Positions 9,379 through 59,634 of a DNA stretch of 64,000 nucleotides are shown piece by piece. The DNA comes from an uncultured delta proteobacterium (GTDB lineage: Bacteria; Desulfobacterota; Binatia; Binatales; Binataceae): positions 281,010-345,009 of the forward strand of contig CAWHWI010000003.1 in assembly GCA_963833025.1 (NCBI GenBank), given 5' to 3'. Both the position numbers and the translations under genes were made by a program. Position 1 is the stretch's first letter. Every line of letters begins with the position of its first letter. The notes beneath the pieces are model-generated. The model did no database searches and was not told the DNA's origin. It saw only the letters and a list, made by a program, of their open reading frames with translations.

Positions 9379-9455
9379 CTGGCGCGCCCGGAGGGATTCG
9401 AACCCCCAACCCTCAGATCCGAAGTCTGATGCTCTATCCAGTTGAGCTACGGGCG
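9379..9455 (-). tRNA. tRNA-Arg (anticodon TCG), CCA encoded
   Basis: Read 5'->3' on the minus strand: GCGCCCGTAGCTCAACTGGATAGAGCATCAGACTTCGGATCTGAGGGTTGGGGGTTCGAATCCCTCCGGGCGCGCCA. It has a 7-bp acceptor stem, a T-loop TTCGAAT, and anticodon loop cTTCGga. Confidence 0.85.
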
Positions 9456-9564
9456 CTGGCGTGATCGACATCGAACCCGACGAGTCTAGGCACGCATGCC
9501 GGGGCGTGCAACCAATGCCTCCCCACAGCGTACGGTCTGTTGACTCGCACGTCCGCTCATTCAA

Positions 9565-25974: not shown

Positions 25975-25993
25975 GCGAACCCTCCGAACTTTG

Positions 25994-26070
<77 letters not shown>

Positions 26071-26100
26071 GTCGAAACTTGCTTACGTAGCAGGATGTTT

Positions 26101-26176
26101 GGGGTGAGTGAAGGGATTTGAACCCTCGACCGCCGGAGCCACAATCCGATGCTCTGCCAACTGAGCTACACTCACC
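26101..26176 (-). tRNA. tRNA-His (anticodon GTG) with G-1
   Basis: G-GTGAGTG…TTGTGGC anticodon loop…GGTTCAAATCC…CACTCAC-C-CC. The extra 5' G is pathognomonic for tRNA-His. Confidence 0.85.
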
Positions 26177-26237
26177 ACCTTCGATCTATTCTATCAACCC
26201 GGCGCCTCGCGAGCCGCCGATCTCACAATTCGCCTCC

Positions 26238-26315
<78 letters not shown>

Positions 26316-26318
26316 GAA

Positions 26319-26392
26319 TCGGGGCGAGCCGATTTGAACGGCCGACCCCCTGCTCCCAAGGCAGGTGCGCTACCAAGCTGCGCTACGCCCCG
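26319..26392 (-). tRNA. tRNA-Pro (anticodon TGG)
   Basis: CGGGGCGTAGCGCAGCTTGGTAGCGCACCTGCCTTGGGAGCAGGGGGTCGGCCGTTCAAATCGGCTCGCCCCGA. It lies 3 nt upstream of tRNA-Arg(TCT). The operon order is Pro-Arg-His-Lys. Confidence 0.85.
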
Positions 26393-26878
26393 AGCCCTTA
26401 GGAAGTAACACACCGACGATCGGCTCTCAACCAAGGTTCCTCTGCGCATCGATTTTTACTCAACAAATGTTTTCATGCGACCGAGCGCGATCCACGCCAT
26501 CGTTGTGTATGACGGCGTCGTCGAGTGGAAGCGCGAACTGTCGAAACAAATTCGGCGGGGCATGAGCATCATCGTATTCAACCCATGATCAGGGCTGCGC
26601 AGTGCAGTCAGGTCGGAGCACCCCGCAGAACGCATCGTTGAGATGCGAACATTATAAGGTCGCATCTGGCGGAGCGGTCGCAACTTGCAAAACTCTCGAA
26701 TTTCGCGGGAAAGTGGCCGAATTCGAGACTTTCACGTGTCCCGCGTCGCAGAAAGAGAAAAAAATTTGATGGCGATTCCTTGAATTCGCTTCGGTTTTCC
26801 GAAGGCACGATGCTTGCTTCTCTTCCTCTTGCGCTGACAATCTCCTCCCCCGAGACAACAGCGTCTGTCCCCAAGCAA

Positions 26879-48499: not shown

Positions 48500-49531
48500 T
48501 CAAACTCCGGCGCGGCTCGGGCGCATCCTGAGAATCTGGCGGATCCCCCACGCTGTGGAATGTGAGTCGCGAACGCATTCGCGGAGTACTCCGAGATAGC
48601 CGCGCGTCACGTGCACGGACTCCTTGAAGTCGGACTTCGACATCAGGACACGATGAAGCTCCGGCAGCCGATAGAACGGAACGCTCGGATAGAAGTGATG
48701 CTCAATGTGATAGTTGACGTTCTTCGGCGCGACGAAAATGTGGTCGAGTACGGACGCGCGCGTGGACCTGGTCTGCGCGTAGGCGTTGGCGCGGCCCTCG
48801 ATGGCGGAATGCTCGGCGATACTGCGGACGCGGAAGATCACGATCAGCCAGGTGAACAACGGAACAAACCAGTACATCGCGAGTAGATGAAGCGCGCCGA
48901 ACCATGCGAACATCGCGACGACCGCGGCGTAAAATCCGTATCGAGCCGCCAGAAAGCCGCGGCTGACGCCAGTGTCCCGCGACAAAAGCATGACCGCTAG
49001 CTTCAGATAGTAGATAGCGCCGAGCCCGGAGACGTCGCGCAGCATCAACATCGTGAGCCGCCGCCGCTGCTGAGGAAACACCCAGGTCGCGTCGCCCTGC
49101 CGGCGCGCCCAGTCGGGATCCTGGCCGGTATTCAAATAGCGATGATGCGCGAAATGGTTCTTGCGGTAAGCGCGCGCCGAAATGAGGTTCGGCCATGCCA
49201 GGATAATCTCGGCGGTCCAGTCGTTGAGGCGCCGGCCTCTGAACAGGCGATAGTGAACGCCGTCGTGCATCAGAATGAGCAGCGCGTGTTGCCGCGCTCC
49301 AATGAACGCAACTGTCAGCAGGTACACGACGGGGTTGAAGAAGCGTCGGCATAGACAGACTGCGGCCAGTATCAGCGTCCACTCGGCGACGATGTGAAAG
49401 GTACTTCTGAGCGGGCTCAGAGCTGACAATTGGTGGAGTTCGTCGCGCGTGAGCTTGATTGGAATATTGCCCGCGAAGTCGTCCGACGGACGACTATCTG
49501 CGAGTCGTTCGCTTGCCAAATCGATGTTCAT
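48500..49531 (-). CDS. membrane fatty acid desaturase family protein
   Basis: Has histidine boxes HDGVH, HFAHHRY and HIEHHF, plus TM helices. Confidence 0.8.
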   Translation of the reverse strand: MNIDLASERLADSRPSDDFAGNIPIKLTRDELHQLSALSPLRSTFHIVAEWTLILAAVCLCRRFFNPVVYLLTVAFIGARQHALLILMHDGVHYRLFRGRRLNDWTAEIILAWPNLISARAYRKNHFAHHRYLNTGQDPDWARRQGDATWVFPQQRRRLTMLMLRDVSGLGAIYYLKLAVMLLSRDTGVSRGFLAARYGFYAAVVAMFAWFGALHLLAMYWFVPLFTWLIVIFRVRSIAEHSAIEGRANAYAQTRSTRASVLDHIFVAPKNVNYHIEHHFYPSVPFYRLPELHRVLMSKSDFKESVHVTRGYLGVLRECVRDSHSTAWGIRQILRMRPSRAGV

Positions 49532-49593: not shown

Positions 49594-50271
49594 TCAGAGC
49601 TGGGCGTGCGCGGCAGGAATTTCCTCGACTCTGGCCGCAAAGCGATTCGCCGCCGGCCTCAACCGATCGGAATTGTCGAACCGGATAGTCAGATAGTTGT
49701 CCGGGCTTTCGATCCTCAACCGATGAACGTTCGAGGTTAGCTTCGCCAGCGCTTCCCCTTCGAGAATCATCGGCTGAACCCATGGCAGACCCTGACCGGG
49801 GCATTCGAGATACGGATACTCGACGGGCGCGCCGGCGTTGACGAAGCCCATAGCGGTGTAAAATCCGCCATGACTTCCGACCGCCAGATAGACCAGCACC
49901 GCGCGCGGGTTTCGTCGAACAACCTGAACCGCGATACCGCGCCAGGCATGCATACCGGCGCCGCGCGTCAGCGACCAATGGTCGCTGCACTCCAAAACGG
50001 ACCGAGGCGCGAGATGCGAGAGATCAGGCTCGCGACAGCTTTGCGGAAAGGCCTCGAGGTTATGCAGCGCGACACCGGCCGTCATGCGTTCCGCTGGGTC
50101 ATGTTCTGTCTCGAACAACCCGCAAATATCCGCGGCGTTCAGACGAACCATATTTGCGGCACGGGTGGCGCCCGCATCCTGGTAGCTGGCGCCATGCCGG
50201 GCGCGCGCGTCGGCTAGTCGTTGGGCGAAAACGCTTCGTTCGCCTTCTGTGGTTAAGAGGCGCAATTCCAT
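49594..50271 (-). CDS. putative FeeM/OlsB-like N-acyltransferase (Acetyltransf_5, GNAT superfamily)
   Basis: 225 aa. The N-terminus LRLLTTEGERSVFAQRLADARARHG resembles the L.VRLA.TE.E…AQRLRY motif of N-acyl amino acid synthases. It is co-oriented and adjacent to the desaturase. The assignment is tentative. Confidence 0.45.
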   Translation of the reverse strand: MELRLLTTEGERSVFAQRLADARARHGASYQDAGATRAANMVRLNAADICGLFETEHDPAERMTAGVALHNLEAFPQSCREPDLSHLAPRSVLECSDHWSLTRGAGMHAWRGIAVQVVRRNPRAVLVYLAVGSHGGFYTAMGFVNAGAPVEYPYLECPGQGLPWVQPMILEGEALAKLTSNVHRLRIESPDNYLTIRFDNSDRLRPAANRFAARVEEIPAAHAQL

Positions 50272-50631
50272 TGGTAATCTCCTTTTTTCTGATGAGCGAT
50301 TGCAAAAATGGACGGCAAAAATGGAAGGGGAGGTGCGGCTGGATCAACGCGCAGGCGGCCCGCGGGGTGTCGGAATTATCGGGCGGCGATACTGAACCGT
50401 AAAAACTTGACTCTTTAGCGGTCCGAATTTCGCACATCCGATCATTGGAACAGTAGACCTGGGGTCACTTTTAGCTCCATTCGCTAACACAGAGTCAACA
50501 GGTGGCACGAAAAAATCTCGGCTTCTTTTCCCGGCCTGTTTTATGTTAAGTAAACAATACGTTGGCAGCGTCTAGACAGGTTGTGTTGATTTTACAGAAC
50601 CAATGTCAAGTCTGCTGAAGGAGTCGCGACA

Positions 50632-50943
50632 ATGATTGTGACAAGAAAGCGTTCTTCGACTTTCGACGGATTAGCAGCCGATATAGTGAAGACCAGCGAG
50701 GCTTCGCGCTCTTTGTCGTCCGCTTCCCACCGCGTCCATTCGGAAATTCGGTTTCTCGAGCAACACGACTACGCGCGCCCGCTGCGTAGATCGCTGGGAC
50801 GCGTCGAGATTCGAGCGATAGTTGCGGAAGCCAGACGTTCGGTATGGCCGCATTTGAACGAGGAACCCGTGAGACTGGTTTCGCCGGGGGAATTCACGCG
50901 ATTCTGGTCGGGGTTGGGAGTTCAGTTCCGGCTGACAAGCTGA
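50632..50943 (+). CDS. hypothetical ORF overlapping the 5' end of the ImmA-like gene (doubtful)
   Basis: 103 aa in a different frame from 50844..51440, overlapping it by 100 nt. It may be spurious. Confidence 0.25.
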   Translation: MIVTRKRSSTFDGLAADIVKTSEASRSLSSASHRVHSEIRFLEQHDYARPLRRSLGRVEIRAIVAEARRSVWPHLNEEPVRLVSPGEFTRFWSGLGVQFRLTS

Positions 50944-51440
50944 GCGGACCTGCGGGTCTTGCCCTATTGGGGTTTTACGTGCGAAAAATGGGCGGGTCGC
51001 GGCTGCCTCTGATTTGCGTGAACACGGCGCATCATCCGGCTGCGGTCGGTGCGGCATTTTCTCACGAAATGGGCCATCACCTGACCGGCCAGCTCTTTGA
51101 TTCGCACAGAGACCACGCTCAGCTCCTGGCCTATACCTCTTACGGGGAGCATCTGGAGGAGCCGGAGGAGCTGGCGGCGGACGTCCTAGTGAGCTTGGGG
51201 GTGTATCCGAAATCAGTTGCGCGGAAAATTTTTATGAACACCGAGGAAAAGAAGATACCGAGATCCGCCGCCGAAGAACTTCCGGGCGCGGTATCTGCGA
51301 CGGTGCTCAAATACTTTGAGGTCCGATATGGTCTCAGTTTCGGCGAAAGGCTGCCCTCTACCAGGAAACTTCAGTACCTGGCTGGACTGATTCATTTTGC
51401 AAAATTGAGACGCGCCCTGCTTACCGAGTACGATCTATGA
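50844..51440 (+). CDS. ImmA/IrrE-family (COG2856, DUF955) zinc metallopeptidase
   Basis: Has the HEMGHHL HEXXH motif in the context LPLICVNTAHHPAAVGAAFSHEMGHHLTGQLF. There is no in-frame start upstream of ATG 50844, because an in-frame stop lies at 50787. Confidence 0.7.
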   Translation: MAAFERGTRETGFAGGIHAILVGVGSSVPADKLSGPAGLALLGFYVRKMGGSRLPLICVNTAHHPAAVGAAFSHEMGHHLTGQLFDSHRDHAQLLAYTSYGEHLEEPEELAADVLVSLGVYPKSVARKIFMNTEEKKIPRSAAEELPGAVSATVLKYFEVRYGLSFGERLPSTRKLQYLAGLIHFAKLRRALLTEYDL

Positions 51441-51871
51441 GCCAGAAGAACAGTCTCGGGCGGCTGATAAAGCAAAAACGCAAAGAACTCGATTTGACGC
51501 AGCGCGCGCTGGCAAAGCAGCTCGGCGTCGAAGCAAGTCACGTCGCATACCTCGAGAGCGGAAAGCGCAAACCGTCGTTGACGCTGATGGCCCGGCTCGA
51601 AGACGCGCTTGGCGTCAGCCGACAGCAGATTTTTCTTCTCACGCATCCCGAGTCTGCCGCGGTGGTGAATCCCAGCGACAGTATTCCACCGCGCGAACGA
51701 CCCGCTGACGAGTGGCGTCAGTTCATCACCGATCGTGCCTTCGTCAAGCGGCATCAGATCACGCGGCGCGAACTTCGAGCGTTCAAGGAATTGAGCCTGC
51801 TTGGCTACGTCCTTTCGCGACATCAATTGTTGGCGATCCTGACGATGATTCGCGAGCCCCGGGATGGCTAG
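51437..51871 (+). CDS. XRE-family HTH transcriptional regulator
   Basis: LDLTQRALAKQLGVEASHVAYLESGKRKPS is an XRE HTH. Its start overlaps the ImmA stop (ATGA). Confidence 0.75.
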   Translation: MSQKNSLGRLIKQKRKELDLTQRALAKQLGVEASHVAYLESGKRKPSLTLMARLEDALGVSRQQIFLLTHPESAAVVNPSDSIPPRERPADEWRQFITDRAFVKRHQITRRELRAFKELSLLGYVLSRHQLLAILTMIREPRDG

Positions 51872-51984
51872 CGACGACGCCTGAGCTTTGACGTTCTCCC
51901 GCCAGCGCGCCTCGAGGGGCGCGCGAGTTTTTCCACAATTCCGAATCGAAATGCGGTCGCGGCACTCATGCCGATGCGCGACAA

Positions 51985-53355
51985 TTGCGCGAATTCGTAC
52001 TGAGATCATCAGCGAGGCTTGCAGTGCAGAAATTTTACGAAATTCCCGACAGTCCCGCGGGACGCCAGCTTGCGTGGTATCTCGAGCGCGTCAGCTCCGC
52101 GGGCGAAGGCGCGTCCGAGACCGAACTCGACGCTCGATGCGCTCTGAAGATGAATGTGCGCGCGCCGTTTCCGTATCCGCACGAAGTGATGACCGGCGGA
52201 TGGGAGCGATGCTGCGAGAGCTACGGCGATTTCACAGTGGCGTCGGTCGAGCAGATTTCGGACTTCCACCTGACAGCCAGGTTGGAGAGCGCCAGCAAGA
52301 AATTTCGGCTGTCGATCGAGGTCGAAGACCGCGAGCCGCATCGAATCACCGTGCTCAATCGCGAGCGTATCCTGGATTTCGAGGTAGTGTCGTGCGAGGC
52401 GACGATTGCGGACGCGGCCGTGCTCGCGGACATCGAGCGGCGATGCCCAATCGTGCTTGGCGACGGCGTCACGATGACGATCGAGCGGGGCGACGACTAC
52501 TTTGCGTTTACGCGGCTGATGGACGACTTCGTGGTCGCGCTGGGTTGCGTGGATGGAAAGCCGGCGGGCGTCAACGTGGCCGCGCTGCATACCGTGCGGG
52601 TGGGAGAGCGCAATTATCGCGCCCACGCGTTCGCACACCTGCGCATTCTTCCGGAGCATCAGAAGAAAGGCCTGTGGGGCGCGATCAACCGCGTTTTCGA
52701 CCAGAAGTATCCGAAAGGATCGTCAGACGGAGAAACCGCGTACGTGTCGGTTGATAACGCCGCGATGCTGCGAGGCTTTGCCGGCGCGCCGCGATGGAGC
52801 ATTCATGCGATTCGCGCGCAACTTGTGTGCGCGTCGCTCGCCGGTCCGCAGGTCGGACGACCGGCCCTCCCGCGCGATGCGTCGCGAATCGTCGAGATTC
52901 TGAACGCAACGCACGAATCCGACGAGATGTACTTGCCGTACACGGTGGAGTCATTCACCGCGCGCGTCGAACGGTCGCCGCGCGACTACTGCTGGGAGCG
53001 AGTGCGGATGACGGATCGCGCGGTGGTGGGCGTGTGGCCGGCGGGCGACACGGTGCGGTTCATAATCGAGTCGAAGGGCAACCGCGTCGAGTCGCGGCGC
53101 GGTCTCGCGCTGGATTGGGGGTTTTTATCGGGCGCGGAAGACGAGTTCGAGGCGCTTCTCCGCGCGCAATGCGGATGGCTTTCCGATCGCGGTCTGGACC
53201 GACTGTCGCTGTTCACGTCGGAGGCGTCCGCCGGATACGAGCGCGTGCGCGCCCTGGCGAGCGAGTTGGAACGGTACGTAGTGATTTCATTCGGCATCCC
53301 GGAGCCACCGGGCGCAGCCGCCCGCGCCTTGTACGTCGATCCGATTTACTTTTAG
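51985..53355 (+). CDS. GNAT-fold acyltransferase with N-terminal extra domain (tandem GNAT-like)
   Basis: The start is TTG 51985 or GTG 52024. It contains a Q/R-x-x-G-x-G/A-like motif (HQKKGLWGAI) and a second GNAT-like half. The alternative frame 51888..52754 is Arg-rich and rejected. Confidence 0.6.
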   Translation: MREFVLRSSARLAVQKFYEIPDSPAGRQLAWYLERVSSAGEGASETELDARCALKMNVRAPFPYPHEVMTGGWERCCESYGDFTVASVEQISDFHLTARLESASKKFRLSIEVEDREPHRITVLNRERILDFEVVSCEATIADAAVLADIERRCPIVLGDGVTMTIERGDDYFAFTRLMDDFVVALGCVDGKPAGVNVAALHTVRVGERNYRAHAFAHLRILPEHQKKGLWGAINRVFDQKYPKGSSDGETAYVSVDNAAMLRGFAGAPRWSIHAIRAQLVCASLAGPQVGRPALPRDASRIVEILNATHESDEMYLPYTVESFTARVERSPRDYCWERVRMTDRAVVGVWPAGDTVRFIIESKGNRVESRRGLALDWGFLSGAEDEFEALLRAQCGWLSDRGLDRLSLFTSEASAGYERVRALASELERYVVISFGIPEPPGAAARALYVDPIYF

Positions 53356-53429
53356 GATCACGCTGGCCGCGGAGCAGTTAGCACAGTAGCATCACGGTAA
53401 AGCTGATCGACGCAAAGAGGAGAGGCCAT

Positions 53430-54647
53430 ATGGAGCTGGCACCCAAGCGGGCCGGATTCGCGCCCGAACGAATCAATCGAATCACCGAACACCTGGACAA
53501 GAACTATATCGCGCCCAGCAAAAGCAAAATCGCCGGCTGCCAGACTCTGGTGGCGAGACACGGCCACGTAGCCTATTTCAAATCGCAAGGCTTGATGGAT
53601 CGCGAGCGCCGCAAGCCGATGGCGGACGATACAATCTTCCGGCTCTATTCGATGACCAAACCGATCGCGTCGGTGGCTCTGATGACTCTCTACGAGCAGG
53701 GTCACTTTCAGCTCAACGATCCGGTGTCGCGTTTCATTCCGGCGTGGCGCGATCAGAAGGTGTGGGTGTCGGGCGAAGGCGCGAGCATGGAGACTGCGGC
53801 GCCGGCGCGGCCGATGACGATGCGTCACGTGCTGAGCCACAGTGGCGGACTTACCTACGGCGCCACCAATCATCCTGTTGACCGTGCCTATCGCGAAGTC
53901 GGCGTGGGACGCGGCGCGGGCGAGACGCTTAGCGGGTTTGCGGACAAGCTCGCGAAGGTGCCGCTGCGTTACCAGCCGGGAGAGCATTGGATGTACTCGC
54001 TGTCGACGGACGTATGCGGCTACCTGGTCGAGGCGATTTCGGGAAAGCGCTTCGACCAATATCTGCAAGAGACTATTTTCGATCCGCTCGACATGAAGGA
54101 CACGTCGTTCATGGTGGCGCCGCGCAAGACGGATCGTTTCGCGGCTAACTACGAGCGACAGGCCGACAAAACGCTGAAGCTGATCGACGATCCGGAGCGC
54201 AGCAACTATCTGAAGCAGCCCACCTTCTTTTCGGGCGGCGGAGGACTTACCGGCACGGCGGCGGACTACTTGCGCTTCTGCGAGATGCTGCGGCGCGGCG
54301 GCGAGCTGGGCGGCGCGCGCATCCTGGGACCTCGCACGATCGAGTTGATGCATCGCAACCACCTCGCCGGCGGCAAAGACCTAAGCCAGATGGCGATTGG
54401 CGCGTTCTCGGAAACTGCGTACGAAGGGGTCGGGTTCGGGCTCGGCTTCGCTATGACGCTCGGACAGGTCGAGGCGGGCGGTCTCGGCGGCGGCGAGTAT
54501 TACTGGGGCGGCGCGGCCTCGACTATCTTCTGGGTGGACCCGAAGGAAGACATGGTGGTGATTTTCATGACCCAGCTGATGCCGTCGGCCACCTTCAACT
54601 TCCGCGGACAACTCAGGAACATCATCTATTCGGCAATCGTCGAGTAA
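53430..54647 (+). CDS. beta-lactamase / transpeptidase-family serine hydrolase
   Basis: Has SxxK (SMTK), a YSLS region and HxG/KTG-like (LTGTAADY), 405 aa. Confidence 0.8.
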   Translation: MELAPKRAGFAPERINRITEHLDKNYIAPSKSKIAGCQTLVARHGHVAYFKSQGLMDRERRKPMADDTIFRLYSMTKPIASVALMTLYEQGHFQLNDPVSRFIPAWRDQKVWVSGEGASMETAAPARPMTMRHVLSHSGGLTYGATNHPVDRAYREVGVGRGAGETLSGFADKLAKVPLRYQPGEHWMYSLSTDVCGYLVEAISGKRFDQYLQETIFDPLDMKDTSFMVAPRKTDRFAANYERQADKTLKLIDDPERSNYLKQPTFFSGGGGLTGTAADYLRFCEMLRRGGELGGARILGPRTIELMHRNHLAGGKDLSQMAIGAFSETAYEGVGFGLGFAMTLGQVEAGGLGGGEYYWGGAASTIFWVDPKEDMVVIFMTQLMPSATFNFRGQLRNIIYSAIVE

Positions 54648-54666
54648 GTGGGCGAGGAGACCTTGA

Positions 54667-55629
54667 ATGAAAGCTGCGGTCTACTATCAAAACGGCGGTC
54701 CGGAAGTCCTCAAGTACGAGGACGTTCCCGATCCCGAGTGCCATCCCAAAGGCGTGGTGATTCGCGTCGAGGCTGTAAGTATCGAGGGCGGCGACACGCT
54801 CAATCGTTGGCATGGCGCGCTGTTCAGTAAGCCTCATGTTGTTGGCTACCAGGCCGGCGGCGAGATCGTCGAGGTAGGTTCGGAGGTGACAGACCTGAAG
54901 GTAGGCCAGAAGGTCACCACCGTTAATGCTATGGGCTCACATGCGGCGCTGCGATCGGTGCCGGCGCGCAACGCGTGGCTGGTGCCACGCGGATTCGACA
55001 TCAAGCTGGCCGCGGCCATCCCCGTTCCGTTCGGCACCGCGGACGATTGCCTGTTCGAATTCGGCAAGCTGAAGGCGGGAGAGACAGTGCTGGTGCAGGC
55101 GGGCGCGAGCGGTGTCGGCGTCGCGGCAATTCAGCTTGCCAAGCGAGCCGGTGCTACAGTGCTGGCGACAGCGTCGAGCAACGAGCGGCTGGAGCGGCTG
55201 AAGCCGCTAGGTCTCGATCATGGGATCAACTATAAGACTGATGACGTCGTAAAGTCGGTCATGAAGATTACCCATAACCGGGGCGTCGACCTGGTTGTTG
55301 ACCCTGTAGGTGGCGCGACGTTGCAGGGCAGCCTGCTATCACTCGCCTATCGCGGGCGGGTCTCGATGGTCGGCGCCGCGGGACGCGAAGCCATGACGGT
55401 TGACGTATCGTCGTTGATGGCGGGCAATCGCTCCCTGACCGGAGTTTTCCTGGGCGCCGAAATAGGCACCGATCGTGCCCATAACATGATCCAGCGGCTG
55501 ATCGACGAGGCTGCCCGCGGCGAATTGAAGGTCGTGATCGATCGAACCTTTCCGTTATCGGAGGCCGCCGCGGCGCACGCTTACATCGAGAGTCGGCAGG
55601 CAGTCGGAAGGGTTCTTCTAATCCCATAG
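54667..55629 (+). CDS. zinc-binding MDR superfamily alcohol dehydrogenase / quinone oxidoreductase
   Basis: Has the GAxGxVG Rossmann motif (QAGASGVGVAAIQLAKRAGA). Confidence 0.8.
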   Translation: MKAAVYYQNGGPEVLKYEDVPDPECHPKGVVIRVEAVSIEGGDTLNRWHGALFSKPHVVGYQAGGEIVEVGSEVTDLKVGQKVTTVNAMGSHAALRSVPARNAWLVPRGFDIKLAAAIPVPFGTADDCLFEFGKLKAGETVLVQAGASGVGVAAIQLAKRAGATVLATASSNERLERLKPLGLDHGINYKTDDVVKSVMKITHNRGVDLVVDPVGGATLQGSLLSLAYRGRVSMVGAAGREAMTVDVSSLMAGNRSLTGVFLGAEIGTDRAHNMIQRLIDEAARGELKVVIDRTFPLSEAAAAHAYIESRQAVGRVLLIP

Positions 55630-55662: not shown

Positions 55663-58600
55663 ATGCCGGCGGCAGCGAAAGCAAGGCCTCGTATCGAAGC
55701 AACAATCCCTGCACCACGTCCGGTCAGAGAGTGGTTTGGGATTCCCATTTCGCCGAGGCTCAGCGCGGAAGTCCCTGGGCTGATGCTGCTAGGGCTTGCG
55801 CTAATCGTCAATGCAATATTGCTTTGGCCGGAAGTTCGCATTGAGCGGGTGCCGGTCAACGACCTGAGCTTCCATATCGCAGCATCGAAACGCCTGGCTG
55901 ACAGTCTTACCACGGGTGACTCGTTCCTTGACCCATGGATGTCGCAATGGGCGCTGGGATATCCACTGTGGCACTTCTATCAGCCGCTCCCGCACATGGT
56001 AGCGGGGTTGTGGCTTTCAATAACGAGTCATTTCGCTTCGGCACCTGCGTCATTCGCCGTGCTCTACTATCTGTTGATGGTAGTGTTACCAGCTTCGACC
56101 TATCTGGGTGCGCGCCTATTAGGTCTTGAGCCGCTCGCGGCGGGTTTCGCGACAATTCTTATCCTGGGAGTTAGCGAGGTCGGCGACCTCAGCCGCTATG
56201 GGCTGTCTTACGGTGCGTATGTTCGACGCGGTTCCGGCCTTTACACCCAACTGATGTCCTACAACCTGCTGATGCCGGCGCTAGGACTCGCCAACTACTC
56301 GCTCAACACAGGCCGGCGGCGAATCCTGGCGGCTTTCCTGATTGCGGCTACCGCACTGTCACATGTCGTGTTCGGCTACGCGCTAATTGTCTCGATAGCA
56401 GTCATCGCGCTGGTCGGACCGCGTGGCGACCGCTCGCGGCGAGTCGTCCGCGCCGCATCGATCCTGATTCCCGCCGTCATCCTACTCGCGTGGTTCGTCG
56501 TTCCGATGCTGCTGGCCAGCGGCGAGGCGAACCGCTGCCGCTGGGATGACGTTTGGAAGTTCGACTCGTGGGGAGCGCGCAACATAATCAACACGCTGTT
56601 CTCGGGGCGCTTTTTCGACGACGGCCGCCTACCTGTTATGACGCTGTCGATTGCGGCCGCGTCGCTGCTCGCGCTGTATCGGTGGAGAAGGCCGATGCCG
56701 CGACGTCTGCTGGTTCTTACCGCGGTGTGGCTGGCGATTTTTTTCGGCCGCACGACCTGGGGATACTTCATGCTCGCGCTGGGACTGCCCGGGACGTTTC
56801 ACGTCAGCCGTTTCGAATCTGTTTTCGAACTGTTCGCCGTGTTGTTGACGGCCTGGGCGTTTGCCCAAGTCGTCAAGGTCGCCCGGCGGGCCGGATCCGC
56901 GGCTAAACTCGCGACCGTGATCGTATTGGGCGCCATGGCGATCGTGATTTTCGCCGAGCGCGCGAGTTACCTGCGCCTGAACAACCTATGGGGCGACGAA
57001 AGTCTTGCCGAGATCGCGCGCGAGGGCCCCGATCTCGACGCGTCGCTGGCTGACATCCGCACGATAATGCGCGAGCGCCCGGGCCGCGTATGGAACGGTC
57101 CGACGGGAATGTGGGCCAGGAGTTTCTTAATCGCCGCGTCGCAGCCGTATTCGTTTCTGACGCTGGCCGGCTTCGATGAGCTCAGCTTTCTCTATCACAG
57201 CTTGTCGTGGGGCGCTGACGTGACGGCCGAACTCGACGAGAAGGATCCTTACCAGGCCCAGCTATTCGCGATGCGCGCGGTGCTTGCGCCCGTGACTCAC
57301 ACAGCGCCCCCCAATTGGAAGCGTCGCGCAATTCACGGCCAGCTCGCCGTCTACGAAGCTTCCAGTGAGGGTTACTTCGGCCTGGTGGATATTGGCGCGC
57401 GCTACGATGGTTCCTTATCGAGCGTGCTCAACCGCGACTGGGGATGGATGCAAAATCCCGGGGTGCGCGCCGGCGCGGTGGTCGCGCTCGGAGGCGATCT
57501 CAAGGGAGTGCCGGAATGGAAAATGTTTCAAGCACTGCCGCCGCCCGATCCGCGATTTTTGACTCCGCGCGGAGAAGTGGTTTCCGAAAGCAAACAGGGT
57601 GAGACCTATAGCGCGCGACTGGCATTGCTTCGACCTTGTTACGCGTTGCTCAAGATCACGTACTTTCCAGGGCAGGAAGCCACCGTTGACGGTAAGCCCG
57701 CGCCAATCTATCGCGTGTATCCCGATTTCTGTGCGATCCCGGTCGGCACGGGGGAACATCAAATCGAAGTGCGATACCGTCCCGGACCTATCAAGCCGAT
57801 ATTGCTGATCGCCGGCTTCATCCTGGTGGGCTTGATCGCGCAAGCGATGCGCAGGCCGAGCTACGCTGCGATGGAACGCAGGATTACCGCGCGGCTGGCG
57901 GAAATCGCGACCCCTTGGGACACTCCCAGGACGCGAACGGCGCTGGCGCTCGCAGTTCTGATCCTGCTCTTCACGCACACCCTGTTCGGCGGCAAACTGA
58001 TCGACGGCCATGACTCGCTCGAGTACCCGCCTCGGCTGACTGAATTCGCCAAAATACTTGGCGACCATCAATTCCCGCCGGTATGGGCGCCGGATCTCGG
58101 CGCTGGGCATGGACAGCCGCTTTTCGAGTTCGCGCCGCCCTTGATCTACGCGATAGCACTGCCTTTCTTCAAAGTCGGCTTCTCGCTGGCGAACTCGCTT
58201 CAATTTGGATCGGCAATTCTGTTCGCTCTCGGCGCGATCGCGATATTCCTCATAGGCCGAGAACTCTCGTTTTCCCGTGTCGCGTCGATCTGCGCGGCAG
58301 GCGCGTGGCTGTTCGCGCCGTATCAGTCTCTGGACATGTACGTGTCTGCGCGATTCGCCGAGTCGTCCGCTATTGCAGTGGCTCCCGTGGCGCTGCTCGG
58401 GCTGATCATAGCTCTTCAACGCCCGACTGCAATCAGTGTGCTGCTAGGCGCGCTTGCCATGGCGATGTTGCCGCTCGCACACAATGCGATCGCGCTCCTG
58501 ATGTTCCCGGCATTCGCGGCGATAGTCGCGGTTCGTTCCATCGTCTCCGAACATCGGCTGAAAACCGCCGCGGCCGGCGCTGGCGTGATGGTCGGTGGAC

Positions 58601-59634
58601 TGGGACTCAGTGCGTTTTTCTGGCTTCCGGCATTGCTTGAACGCGACTTAGTAAAGACCGACCTTCTGCGCACCGGCTTCCTCAATTGGACCAACTACAT
58701 TATCTGGCCGTCACAGTTGTTTTGGTCGCCGTGGGGATTCGGCTACGCGTCACGCGGTCCGACCAACGGTATCTCGTACTCGCTCGGACTCGCTCACATA
58801 GCCTTGGCGGTCGCGGGACTCGTTATCGCGACACGCGCGGCGAATCGCACTCGCCGCCTTGACGCCATCGTCTTTGCCGGCGCAGCGACTGTAGCCGCAC
58901 TGCTAGCCACCGATTTGTCGTGGACGATTTGGGAGCACGTCGAAACGCTCCAGTACCTCGCTTATCCGTGGCGCACCTTATGCGTTCCGGCGCTGTTCAT
59001 GCCGCTGCTGGCTCTGTACGCGTTCGAACGACTAGGCCCCCGGCTGGCGTGCGCCGCGCTTGCAGTCGTTGTGCTGCTCAACGTCACGCACACCGCACCC
59101 AAAGGAATTCAGACTTATGATGAAGCCTACTACGCGGCAGACTCAATCGCTCACCTGGGTCTGAACACGTCGACTCGCGAAGAGTACGAGCCGCGAACCG
59201 TGCAATACCGTCCTTACTTCGACAGCGTCCTGCTCAAGGGCGTCCGCTCCGCGCCGGTCGTACATCAACTTGCCGTCAACTCGCATAATCAGTCGTTCAC
59301 GGTCGATGCAAGCGAACCCACGCTCATGCAGGATTCGATTTTCGACTATCCGGGATGGACGGTGCTGGTCGACGCTCGGGAAGTTGCGACTTCGCCTGCA
59401 TCAGTCAGCGGCGAGATAACCTTCACCGTTCCGGCCGGGACACACAATGTGTCAGTCGAATTGCGCCCTACTCCCATCCGTCGGTGGTCGCTCTATGCGT
59501 CCTTAGCTACCGTCGCTTTGATGACTGCGTTCCTGATGCTCTCGCTCTTCACGGCCTCAAGTCGCGCTGAGCCTGTCGAAGAGCCCACACCTAAAAGAGT
59601 TGCTAAGGCTCGCGTCAGGAAATCACGCGACTAA
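55663..59634 (+). CDS. very large (1323 aa) polytopic membrane protein with two tandem GT-C/YfhO-like modules
   Basis: Two homologous halves are present. Each has about 10 TMs followed by a soluble beta-rich domain. The true start may be an internal Met near 55780. Confidence 0.6.
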   Translation: MPAAAKARPRIEATIPAPRPVREWFGIPISPRLSAEVPGLMLLGLALIVNAILLWPEVRIERVPVNDLSFHIAASKRLADSLTTGDSFLDPWMSQWALGYPLWHFYQPLPHMVAGLWLSITSHFASAPASFAVLYYLLMVVLPASTYLGARLLGLEPLAAGFATILILGVSEVGDLSRYGLSYGAYVRRGSGLYTQLMSYNLLMPALGLANYSLNTGRRRILAAFLIAATALSHVVFGYALIVSIAVIALVGPRGDRSRRVVRAASILIPAVILLAWFVVPMLLASGEANRCRWDDVWKFDSWGARNIINTLFSGRFFDDGRLPVMTLSIAAASLLALYRWRRPMPRRLLVLTAVWLAIFFGRTTWGYFMLALGLPGTFHVSRFESVFELFAVLLTAWAFAQVVKVARRAGSAAKLATVIVLGAMAIVIFAERASYLRLNNLWGDESLAEIAREGPDLDASLADIRTIMRERPGRVWNGPTGMWARSFLIAASQPYSFLTLAGFDELSFLYHSLSWGADVTAELDEKDPYQAQLFAMRAVLAPVTHTAPPNWKRRAIHGQLAVYEASSEGYFGLVDIGARYDGSLSSVLNRDWGWMQNPGVRAGAVVALGGDLKGVPEWKMFQALPPPDPRFLTPRGEVVSESKQGETYSARLALLRPCYALLKITYFPGQEATVDGKPAPIYRVYPDFCAIPVGTGEHQIEVRYRPGPIKPILLIAGFILVGLIAQAMRRPSYAAMERRITARLAEIATPWDTPRTRTALALAVLILLFTHTLFGGKLIDGHDSLEYPPRLTEFAKILGDHQFPPVWAPDLGAGHGQPLFEFAPPLIYAIALPFFKVGFSLANSLQFGSAILFALGAIAIFLIGRELSFSRVASICAAGAWLFAPYQSLDMYVSARFAESSAIAVAPVALLGLIIALQRPTAISVLLGALAMAMLPLAHNAIALLMFPAFAAIVAVRSIVSEHRLKTAAAGAGVMVGGLGLSAFFWLPALLERDLVKTDLLRTGFLNWTNYIIWPSQLFWSPWGFGYASRGPTNGISYSLGLAHIALAVAGLVIATRAANRTRRLDAIVFAGAATVAALLATDLSWTIWEHVETLQYLAYPWRTLCVPALFMPLLALYAFERLGPRLACAALAVVVLLNVTHTAPKGIQTYDEAYYAADSIAHLGLNTSTREEYEPRTVQYRPYFDSVLLKGVRSAPVVHQLAVNSHNQSFTVDASEPTLMQDSIFDYPGWTVLVDAREVATSPASVSGEITFTVPAGTHNVSVELRPTPIRRWSLYASLATVALMTAFLMLSLFTASSRAEPVEEPTPKRVAKARVRKSRD

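Follow-up and report, generated by a model that had tools for sequence, protein, structure and literature searches.

The closest described relatives of the locus reported here are pairs made up of a peptidase of the M78 family and a repressor of the XRE family. In the CapH/CapP system, the regulator pair is encoded on the opposite strand from its cargo operon, the two have a promoter region in common, and a conserved binding site lies there (bioRxiv 10.1101/2022.04.27.489752). ImmA and ImmR of ICEBs1 and phage-like elements also join a COG2856 protein to an XRE protein, and in the IrrE(PprI)-DdrO pair of Deinococcus, the M78 peptidase is reported to inactivate the XRE repressor by cutting its C-terminal dimerization domain. 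Here we describe a locus in a 64,000-nucleotide stretch of DNA (the window, to which all coordinates refer) from an uncultured delta proteobacterium of the Binatia (contig CAWHWI010000003.1, positions 281,010–345,009). In this locus, a gene for a divergent HEXXH metallopeptidase is followed by an overlapping XRE gene and faces an operon on the opposite strand across a conserved intergenic region. We consider a CapH/CapP-style peptidase/repressor switch for this divergent operon to be the best-supported reading of the locus, although we hold it tentatively. A preliminary description, drawn up from the DNA letters, had instead proposed a protease-derepressed cassette running downstream on the same strand through an acetyltransferase-like gene and a serine hydrolase gene.

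All four of the co-oriented open reading frames (ORFs) on which that description was built exist on the plus strand of the window as called (50844–51440, 51437–51871, 51985–53355 and 53430–54647). The first, of 198 amino acids, encodes the HEXXH motif. Homologues of its product, however, are nearly all 250–280 amino acids long, and their first ~100 residues match a second ORF of the window that lies in another frame (50632–50943). Alignment placed the break at a single missing C after position 50936, where the window reads CTGACAAG and two other loci read CTGACCAAG: L047, an independent short contig from an assembly of the same strain, which encodes a 443-amino-acid protein (discussed below) identical to that of the window, and L006, from the closest other species. 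In L047 the peptidase gene was called as one intact ORF of 269 amino acids, and it is intact in L006 as well. Because the frame is uninterrupted in both, the peptidase gene is taken to span 50632–51440 on the plus strand (269 codons) rather than the 198-amino-acid ORF. The frameshift is most simply explained by a consensus error or a strain-level indel; a real pseudogene is less likely, because the frame is unbroken in the second, independent assembly of this strain. Further single-base indel differences from near-identical assemblies are found at ~52003 and ~52021, in non-coding sequence upstream of the gene for the 443-amino-acid protein; like the one at 50936–50937, they probably stem from errors in the consensus of the source assembly.

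The HEXXH motif of the peptidase, HEMGH, is encoded at nucleotides 51063–51077. In an alignment of 32 diverse relatives, all sequences share H145, E146, E180 and D184, and at least 90% of them keep H149, so that the motif is invariant or nearly so across the homologues. The same alignment displays a characteristic motif series, LRGFY...I-x-LNTAH-x-P-x-AVAATF-x-HE(L/M)GHH...HL-x-D-x-x-EL(F/A)AD-x-LV-x-L-x-x-YP. Roughly 30 residues past the HEXXH is a motif of the third-ligand Glu type, E-x-x-A-(N/D)-x-(F/L), with E180 and D184 lying within (P)EELAAD; its Glu is the predicted third zinc ligand. The order LRGFY...I-x-LNTAH...HE(L/M)GHH...E-L-x-A-D agrees with the M78 layout, and the core is flanked by extensions of ~100 amino acids at the N-terminus and ~70 at the C-terminus.

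When distant relatives were scanned singly, 23 of 32 matched Peptidase_M78 (PF06114), with a best E-value of 5.1e-6. Ten relatives were inspected individually: nine matched PF06114 around the HEXXH at 15–20 bits (cut-off 22) and one had no match. A profile of the diverse family, compared against solved structures, found CapP (7t5t) as its best match (E 0.026), in an alignment that runs from the strand before the HEXXH through the E..AD motif and pairs the latter with E-AQ-AD-LF of CapP. An exhaustive profile search showed the family to be small, with 202 clusters at 50% identity. On the basis of the motif architecture and the transitive profile matches of distant relatives, with no match passing its threshold, we assign the HEXXH protein to a remote and very divergent branch of the M78 (ImmA/IrrE/CapP) family. 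Thus, the protease recognized in the preliminary description survives in its motif and in a remote M78 affinity, but neither as a 198-amino-acid protein nor through a direct match to the family.

The second gene of the pair (51437–51871, plus strand) encodes a 144-amino-acid protein of the XRE helix-turn-helix (HTH) family, as had been proposed, and matches HTH_3 at 2e-14. Its start codon overlaps the stop codon of the peptidase gene as ATGA, from which we consider the two genes to be translationally coupled. The protein is made up of an HTH domain at residues ~7–66, an HPE motif with a variable linker, and a conserved C-terminal helical domain, and it matches the capH model of PADLOC at 2.8e-8.

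To place the locus in context, ten window proteins were mapped by tblastn onto 41 loci from species-representative genomes, all of them Binatia-type metagenome-assembled genomes, and onto contigs with individual homologues; counts are given over 40 species-level loci. The XRE gene adjoins the peptidase gene in 19 of the 40. In many loci, at all distances from the window, the stop codon of the peptidase gene either overlaps the start of the XRE gene or is separated from it by a few nucleotides. As a side observation, one locus (L033:9980-11628) carries two tandem M78-like genes, whose products share 47% and 40% identity with the peptidase of the window, followed by a single XRE gene.

The most constant neighbor of the peptidase gene is not downstream of it but on the other strand. 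A gene for a 225-amino-acid orphan protein (49594–50271, minus strand) lies divergent from the peptidase gene in 36 of 38 assessable loci, at peptidase identities of 33–94%, while the other flanking genes change. Reciprocal look-ups starting from homologues of the 225-amino-acid protein recovered the same module in other flanking contexts. It is followed, 62 nucleotides downstream on the same strand, by a gene of the di-iron desaturase/hydroxylase family (48500–49531, minus strand; PF00487 at 7e-40) that encodes a 343-amino-acid membrane protein and adjoins the 225-amino-acid gene in most loci. Even in distant loci (33–57% peptidase identity), the 225-amino-acid gene is divergent and usually accompanied by the desaturase-family gene and by an XRE gene.

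The start codons of the 225-amino-acid gene (50271, minus strand) and the peptidase gene (50632, plus strand) are separated by an intergenic region common to the two operons (50272–50631). This region is the AT-rich tract of the preliminary description, and its composition is real: the G+C content is 0.489, compared to 0.607 for the whole window. Across loci it is 250–520 bp long, with conserved blocks in the alignment. The best conserved of its elements is a 17-bp near-palindrome, GCTAACACAGAGTCAAC, at 50483–50499 (consensus GnTGAC-N5-GTCAnC). By weight matrix this 17-mer scores 25.4 bits and is unique in the window, the next site reaching 10.1 bits. One dominant copy is present per locus (two in L039), ~140–190 bp ahead of the peptidase start codon, and this holds for loci with identities as low as ~48%. 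Furthermore, the palindrome is perfect in L030 and L039, with changes at positions 2 and 16 that match each other. Our hypothesis, drawn from this pattern of conservation, is that the 17-mer is a candidate operator.

Other features of the intergenic region are less widely kept or less specific. A perfect 8-nucleotide inverted repeat, TTGACTCT / AGAGTCAA, is found at 50407–50414 / 50491–50498, with its arms 76 nucleotides apart and the right arm within the 17-mer; the two arms may represent −35-like boxes facing in opposite directions, or a pair of half-sites. A tandem 13-mer, GCAAAAATGGACG / GCAAAAATGGAAG, lies at 50302–50327, 30–55 nucleotides upstream of the start codon of the 225-amino-acid gene. 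Two copies are present in the window and L006, and a single shorter remnant in other loci. A sigma-70 promoter scan gave two weak matches, at about chance level, and Rfam returned nothing in 50150–52100.

This arrangement invites a comparison with CapP and CapH. A stand-alone HEXXH protein of M78 type occurs here with a small XRE protein of two domains; the former finds its best solved-structure match in CapP, and the capH model matches the latter. The pair stands opposite the 225-amino-acid operon across the 250–520 bp region, a likeness of gene layout. Because this geometry matches that of CapH/CapP, the likely cargo is the operon of the 225-amino-acid and di-iron genes rather than the genes downstream. 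The segment 50632–51871 would then be a lineage-restricted (Binatia) two-gene regulator, consisting of a zinc peptidase and a translationally coupled two-domain XRE repressor. In the proposed mechanism, an XRE dimer would bind the AT-rich promoter region, with the 17-mer as candidate operator, and repress both its own operon and the divergent one. A signal would activate the peptidase, which would cut the XRE protein in its linker or C-terminal domain and lead to derepression. Of this picture, the gene structures, family affinities, pattern of synteny, conserved motif and purifying selection are observed, whereas DNA binding, cleavage, the signal and which operon is regulated are proposed. The locus nevertheless differs from CapP-CapH in several ways: its cargo is not a defence system by PADLOC, its peptidase family falls below the Pfam threshold, it occupies a fixed chromosomal site in one phylum, and its XRE gene is dispensable in many species.

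What the divergent operon makes is suggested by weak similarities of its two products. The 225-amino-acid protein has no match in Pfam or NCBIfam, although one of 17 orthologues matched FeeM (PF21926) at 0.015. A profile of the protein compared with the Protein Data Bank (PDB) gave 7oju, an N-acetyltransferase-like structure, at E 0.32. Its AlphaFold2 model (mean predicted local distance difference test, pLDDT, 52.9; predicted template modeling score 0.59) is good for residues 1–100, below a pLDDT of 50 beyond them, and has a beta-alpha-alpha-beta-beta-beta topology. The top Foldseek match of this model was FeeM (2g0b, E 0.38), followed almost entirely by GNAT-family proteins, none of them significant. 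These three weak but concordant signals suggest that the protein is probably a GNAT/FeeM-like acyltransferase. Its N-terminal topology and RGAG loop resemble the GNAT core of the FeeM-type N-acyl amino acid synthases (GNAT/LuxI-like); unlike them, it carries a conserved C-terminal extension of ~50 residues, and all of its scores are non-significant (E 0.015–0.4). For the di-iron protein, the best NCBIfam match was GntB, the guanitoxin L-arginine gamma-hydroxylase, which belongs to the same superfamily (114 bits; cut-off 380), a resemblance which hints that the protein may act on a substrate that is not a fatty acyl chain. A reasonable guess, as yet unproven, is that the divergent operon directs the synthesis of a small molecule that is both acylated and oxygenated.

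Several observations weigh against a switch of the CapH/CapP type. The family assignment itself is remote: the 198-amino-acid window ORF has no Pfam match at E<=0.1, and its closest relative (P0001, 269 amino acids) has none at E<=1. NCBIfam likewise gave no match for the window ORF, and a sequence search of the PDB returned nothing or noise both for this ORF and for a profile of close homologues. An AlphaFold2 model of the peptidase built with 27 close homologues reached a pLDDT of only 39.8, and its Foldseek result was noise. The 17-mer could alternatively be two opposed −35-like boxes (TTGACA / TTGACT). Here the peptidase gene comes first and the XRE gene overlaps its end, an order that is the reverse of immR-immA. 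A more serious difficulty is that adjacency of peptidase and XRE is not obligate. A neighbor-joining tree of the peptidase indicates that the ancestor had the XRE gene and that a clade of at least 15 species lost it in what looks like a single event, with separate losses in L039 and L040. The peptidase is still intact in the XRE-less clade, in L039 and in L131, and the 17-mer is retained in XRE-less loci. The median ratio of non-synonymous to synonymous substitution rates (dN/dS) of the peptidase is 0.21 in the XRE-less clade, compared to 0.25 in XRE-bearing close relatives. Since the peptidase is kept intact under selection without the XRE gene, it cannot depend only on an adjacent XRE protein. 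The persistence of both peptidase and 17-mer in these loci calls for either an XRE protein encoded in trans or a role independent of XRE.

The same difficulty arises in a second subfamily of the peptidase (290–301 amino acids), which is mostly without a nearby XRE gene. It was found by a metagenome scan with a remote branch (P0228-type, ~35% identical), which yielded 80 loci from soil and peat (L050–L129), all of this one subfamily. The gene usually stands alone between glgX and a gene for a small secreted protein (e.g. L121:5152-8059, L096:6001-6867). About six of these loci have a gene homologous to the two-domain XRE gene described above; it is encoded on the strand of the peptidase gene and ~350 bp ahead of it, with the gene order thus reversed, and the C-terminal domain of the XRE protein is conserved with both peptidase subfamilies. 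About half of the loci have a convergent gene of the beta-lactamase family nearby, and some have a P450 gene. Genes of both kinds are common in soil bacteria, and their proximity here is unexplained and possibly due to chance.

These findings lend some weight to a different reading, somewhat unlikely in our judgement, in which the HEXXH protein works mainly with the 225-amino-acid and di-iron proteins, as an amidase, maturation peptidase or ligand sensor in a pathway of the lipoamino-acid type, and the XRE protein is an optional regulator rather than a substrate. The adjacency of the peptidase and 225-amino-acid genes is the most constant feature of the locus, the purifying selection on the peptidase outlasts the XRE gene, and XRE genes are present in only 19 of 40 species loci and are missing near most members of the second subfamily. 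However, the stand-alone M78 peptidases that have been characterized (ImmA, IrrE and CapP) are reported to be regulatory proteases of XRE repressors. Moreover, where there is an XRE gene, its start codon overlaps the stop codon of the peptidase gene, XRE proteins of one subfamily accompany both peptidase subfamilies, and the peptidase and 225-amino-acid genes lie on opposite strands and are therefore not co-transcribed.

The IrrE-DdrO pair likewise relies on a chromosomal, non-mobile M78 peptidase. Its peptidase gene can lie at a distance from the gene of the repressor that is cut, and the XRE-less loci would fit such an arrangement. Unlike IrrE, the peptidase described here has no detectable GAF-like C-terminal domain and no sequence-level match to IrrE structures, and the single strong copy of the 17-mer in 64 kb gives no sign of a dispersed regulon.

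Comparison with ImmA-ImmR bears on whether the locus is mobile. The HEXXH and downstream E..A(D/N) motifs are alike, as is the adjacent XRE gene, whose product carries a C-terminal domain and which lies next to a divergent promoter region. In contrast, the peptidase has 269 amino acids rather than the roughly 160 of typical COG2856 proteins (PMC2701414). Furthermore, no integrase, excisionase or element borders were found at the locus, and a tblastn search with the peptidase found nothing among 50,697 phage and 72,556 plasmid records. The G+C content is 0.57 at the locus and 0.61 in the window, and the nearest tRNA genes are ~24 kb away. Close relatives are syntenic throughout, sharing the P450, amidohydrolase, desaturase-family, 225-amino-acid, peptidase, hydrolase, oxidoreductase and 1323-amino-acid genes, and this fixed position across species argues against an island. 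PADLOC matched only the XRE protein, to generic HTH models as well as to capH, and found nothing for the 225-amino-acid, di-iron, 443-amino-acid or hydrolase proteins. A remnant of a mobile element was rejected because of the fixed synteny and the lack of an integrase or of phage and plasmid homologues, and a defence island because PADLOC found no defence system at this conserved chromosomal site; the mobile-element switch or defence cassette entertained in the preliminary description is contradicted on both counts.

We next consider the genes downstream of the pair. The 456-amino-acid ORF that begins at 51985 is 100% identical to a database protein (P0391) of 443 amino acids that starts at the GTG codon at 52024, and the gene therefore most likely spans 52024–53355 on the plus strand. 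The N-terminal ~100 residues, described earlier as an unrecognized domain, correspond to ORF_12_N (PF18042, NTF2-like), which matches 29 of 30 family members with a best E-value of 1.9e-7. Behind this domain, at residues ~160–248, there are faint GNAT signals, with Acetyltransf_9 in 8 and Acetyltransf_1 in 3 of 30 members, at 12–15 bits against cut-offs of 20–25, and one source names a homologue of the protein GNAT. A GNAT-like core is therefore plausible, but a Pfam scan of the family detected no second GNAT domain of the kind that the tandem arrangement in the preliminary description calls for. A profile-profile comparison found no relationship between this family and that of the 225-amino-acid protein.

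Upstream of this gene, 33 nucleotides from its GTG start, is a near-palindrome, GCGCGACAATTGCGCG (51976–51991), which is invariant in 7 aligned loci and retained where the XRE gene has been cleanly deleted. This suggests that the 443-amino-acid gene has its own control region, in which the element may be an operator or promoter. Between it and the XRE gene lies a terminator-like GC hairpin followed by a T-run (51905–51924, plus strand). This hairpin is kept in L006 and L001 and absent in L008, and the number of hairpins in the region is not above chance.

The next gene (53430–54647, plus strand) encodes a serine hydrolase of 405 amino acids, and the beta-lactamase-family assignment made earlier is sound: the protein matches PF00144 (4e-67) and carries SMTK at residue 74; no KTG was found, and WGG stands in its place. 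A class C beta-lactamase was ruled out (54 bits; cut-off 415), and the best NCBIfam match was the esterase AcmB (170 bits compared to 550). We therefore classify the protein, by these matches, as an esterase-like PF00144 enzyme. Each of the 24 close species that allowed an assessment has kept the hydrolase, at 87–98% identity, with a median dN/dS of 0.045 in the XRE-less clade and 0.062 in XRE-bearing close relatives. It is followed by an oxidoreductase gene (54667–55629, plus strand), for which the corresponding values are 0.03 and 0.038, so that both behave like core genes. Given its presence in 24 of 24 species, its identity and a dN/dS of ~0.05, the hydrolase is a conserved syntenic gene, a finding that the preliminary description had itself named as counting against a place for it in a cassette. 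Beyond the oxidoreductase is a gene for a polytopic membrane protein of 1323 amino acids (55663–59634, plus strand), with faint matches to YfhO and PgfM-type glycosyltransferases. It is kept 3′ of the hydrolase and oxidoreductase genes in most close relatives and was undetected in a few (e.g. L008, L010, L012).

How often these genes travel together with the pair decides against the cassette. Peptidase, XRE, 443-amino-acid and hydrolase genes are all found in the window and 6 species (in one of which, L025, the XRE and 443-amino-acid matches are partial), so that the full set of four occurs in only 6 of 40 loci. A further 11 species have the peptidase, 443-amino-acid and hydrolase genes without XRE, and 9 have the peptidase and hydrolase only. 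The 443-amino-acid gene is present in 17 of 40 loci and, by the neighbor-joining tree, was lost several times inside the XRE-less clade. It assorts independently of the XRE gene, with both present in 6 loci, XRE only in 13, the 443-amino-acid gene only in 11 and neither in 10. In distant loci, the peptidase and XRE genes persist without the other two, as neither the hydrolase nor the 443-amino-acid gene was detected within 10 kb even at E<=0.01. The 443-amino-acid, hydrolase, oxidoreductase and 1323-amino-acid genes are thus a separate conserved chromosomal unit, adjacent to the pair by chance in one clade.

That an ImmA-like/XRE switch derepresses the co-oriented GNAT-like and hydrolase genes, as a resistance or defence module or a mobile remnant, is accordingly very improbable. 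Such a model can point to the co-orientation of the four genes, which five or six close species share with the window, to the 443-amino-acid gene, which is always found directly upstream of the hydrolase gene and whose ORF_12_N domain is otherwise known in fusions with a beta-lactamase fold, and to the beta-lactamase-family gene beside about half of the second-subfamily loci. However, that gene is convergent in the second subfamily and hence not co-transcribed, and the independent assortment of XRE and 443-amino-acid genes, the pair standing alone in distant loci and the core-like hydrolase all speak against a unit. The gene boundaries do so as well: a hairpin follows the XRE gene, the separate GCGCGACAATTGCGCG element persists in XRE-less loci, and a weight-matrix scan never found a copy of the 17-mer upstream of the 443-amino-acid or hydrolase gene. 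With no phage, plasmid or PADLOC defence-system match and no integrase or tRNA nearby, little remains of the protease-derepressed cassette, which the synteny largely refutes.

Least credible of all is a type II toxin–antitoxin-like COG2856-Xre module with the zinc peptidase as toxin and the XRE protein as antitoxin: although overlapping two-gene operons of this class have been listed as toxin–antitoxin-like (Makarova et al., 2009; PMC2701414) and the XRE protein has sub-threshold matches to the HipB/Y4mF, HigA and MqsA antitoxin models, the putative antitoxin has been lost from a whole clade in which the "toxin" is intact under purifying selection (dN/dS 0.21), and the position is fixed and syntenic rather than patchy or mobile, with no plasmid or phage copies.

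Elsewhere in the window, and unrelated to the locus, are a tRNA cluster at 25992–26393 (Lys-CTT, His-GTG, Arg-TCT and Pro-TGG) and a separate tRNA-Arg(TCG) at 9380–9456 on the minus strand.

The peptidase/XRE pair is a very divergent addition to a known type of regulator pair, in a poorly studied phylum. The ~200 clusters of its family (at 50% identity), all annotated "hypothetical", can now be labeled as remote M78/ImmA-IrrE-CapP-like peptidases with a cognate two-domain XRE protein, and the locus should not be counted among resistance, defence or mobile-element cassettes. For peptidase/XRE switches in general, the opposite strand may be a better place to look for the cargo than the downstream sequence. 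Survival of the peptidase long after the loss of the repressor also raises the question of whether it has substrates encoded in trans, or substrates other than repressors. A broader picture, speculative and rather doubtful at present, is that of a Binatia-specific module in which the M78-like protein, with or without XRE, governs or joins the production of a modified lipid or signal of the N-acyl amino acid type. If this is true, synthesis of the product would fall to a FeeM-like acyltransferase and a GntB-like membrane di-iron oxygenase, and a role for the peptidase without a neighboring XRE substrate would be a departure from the stand-alone M78 peptidases studied so far.

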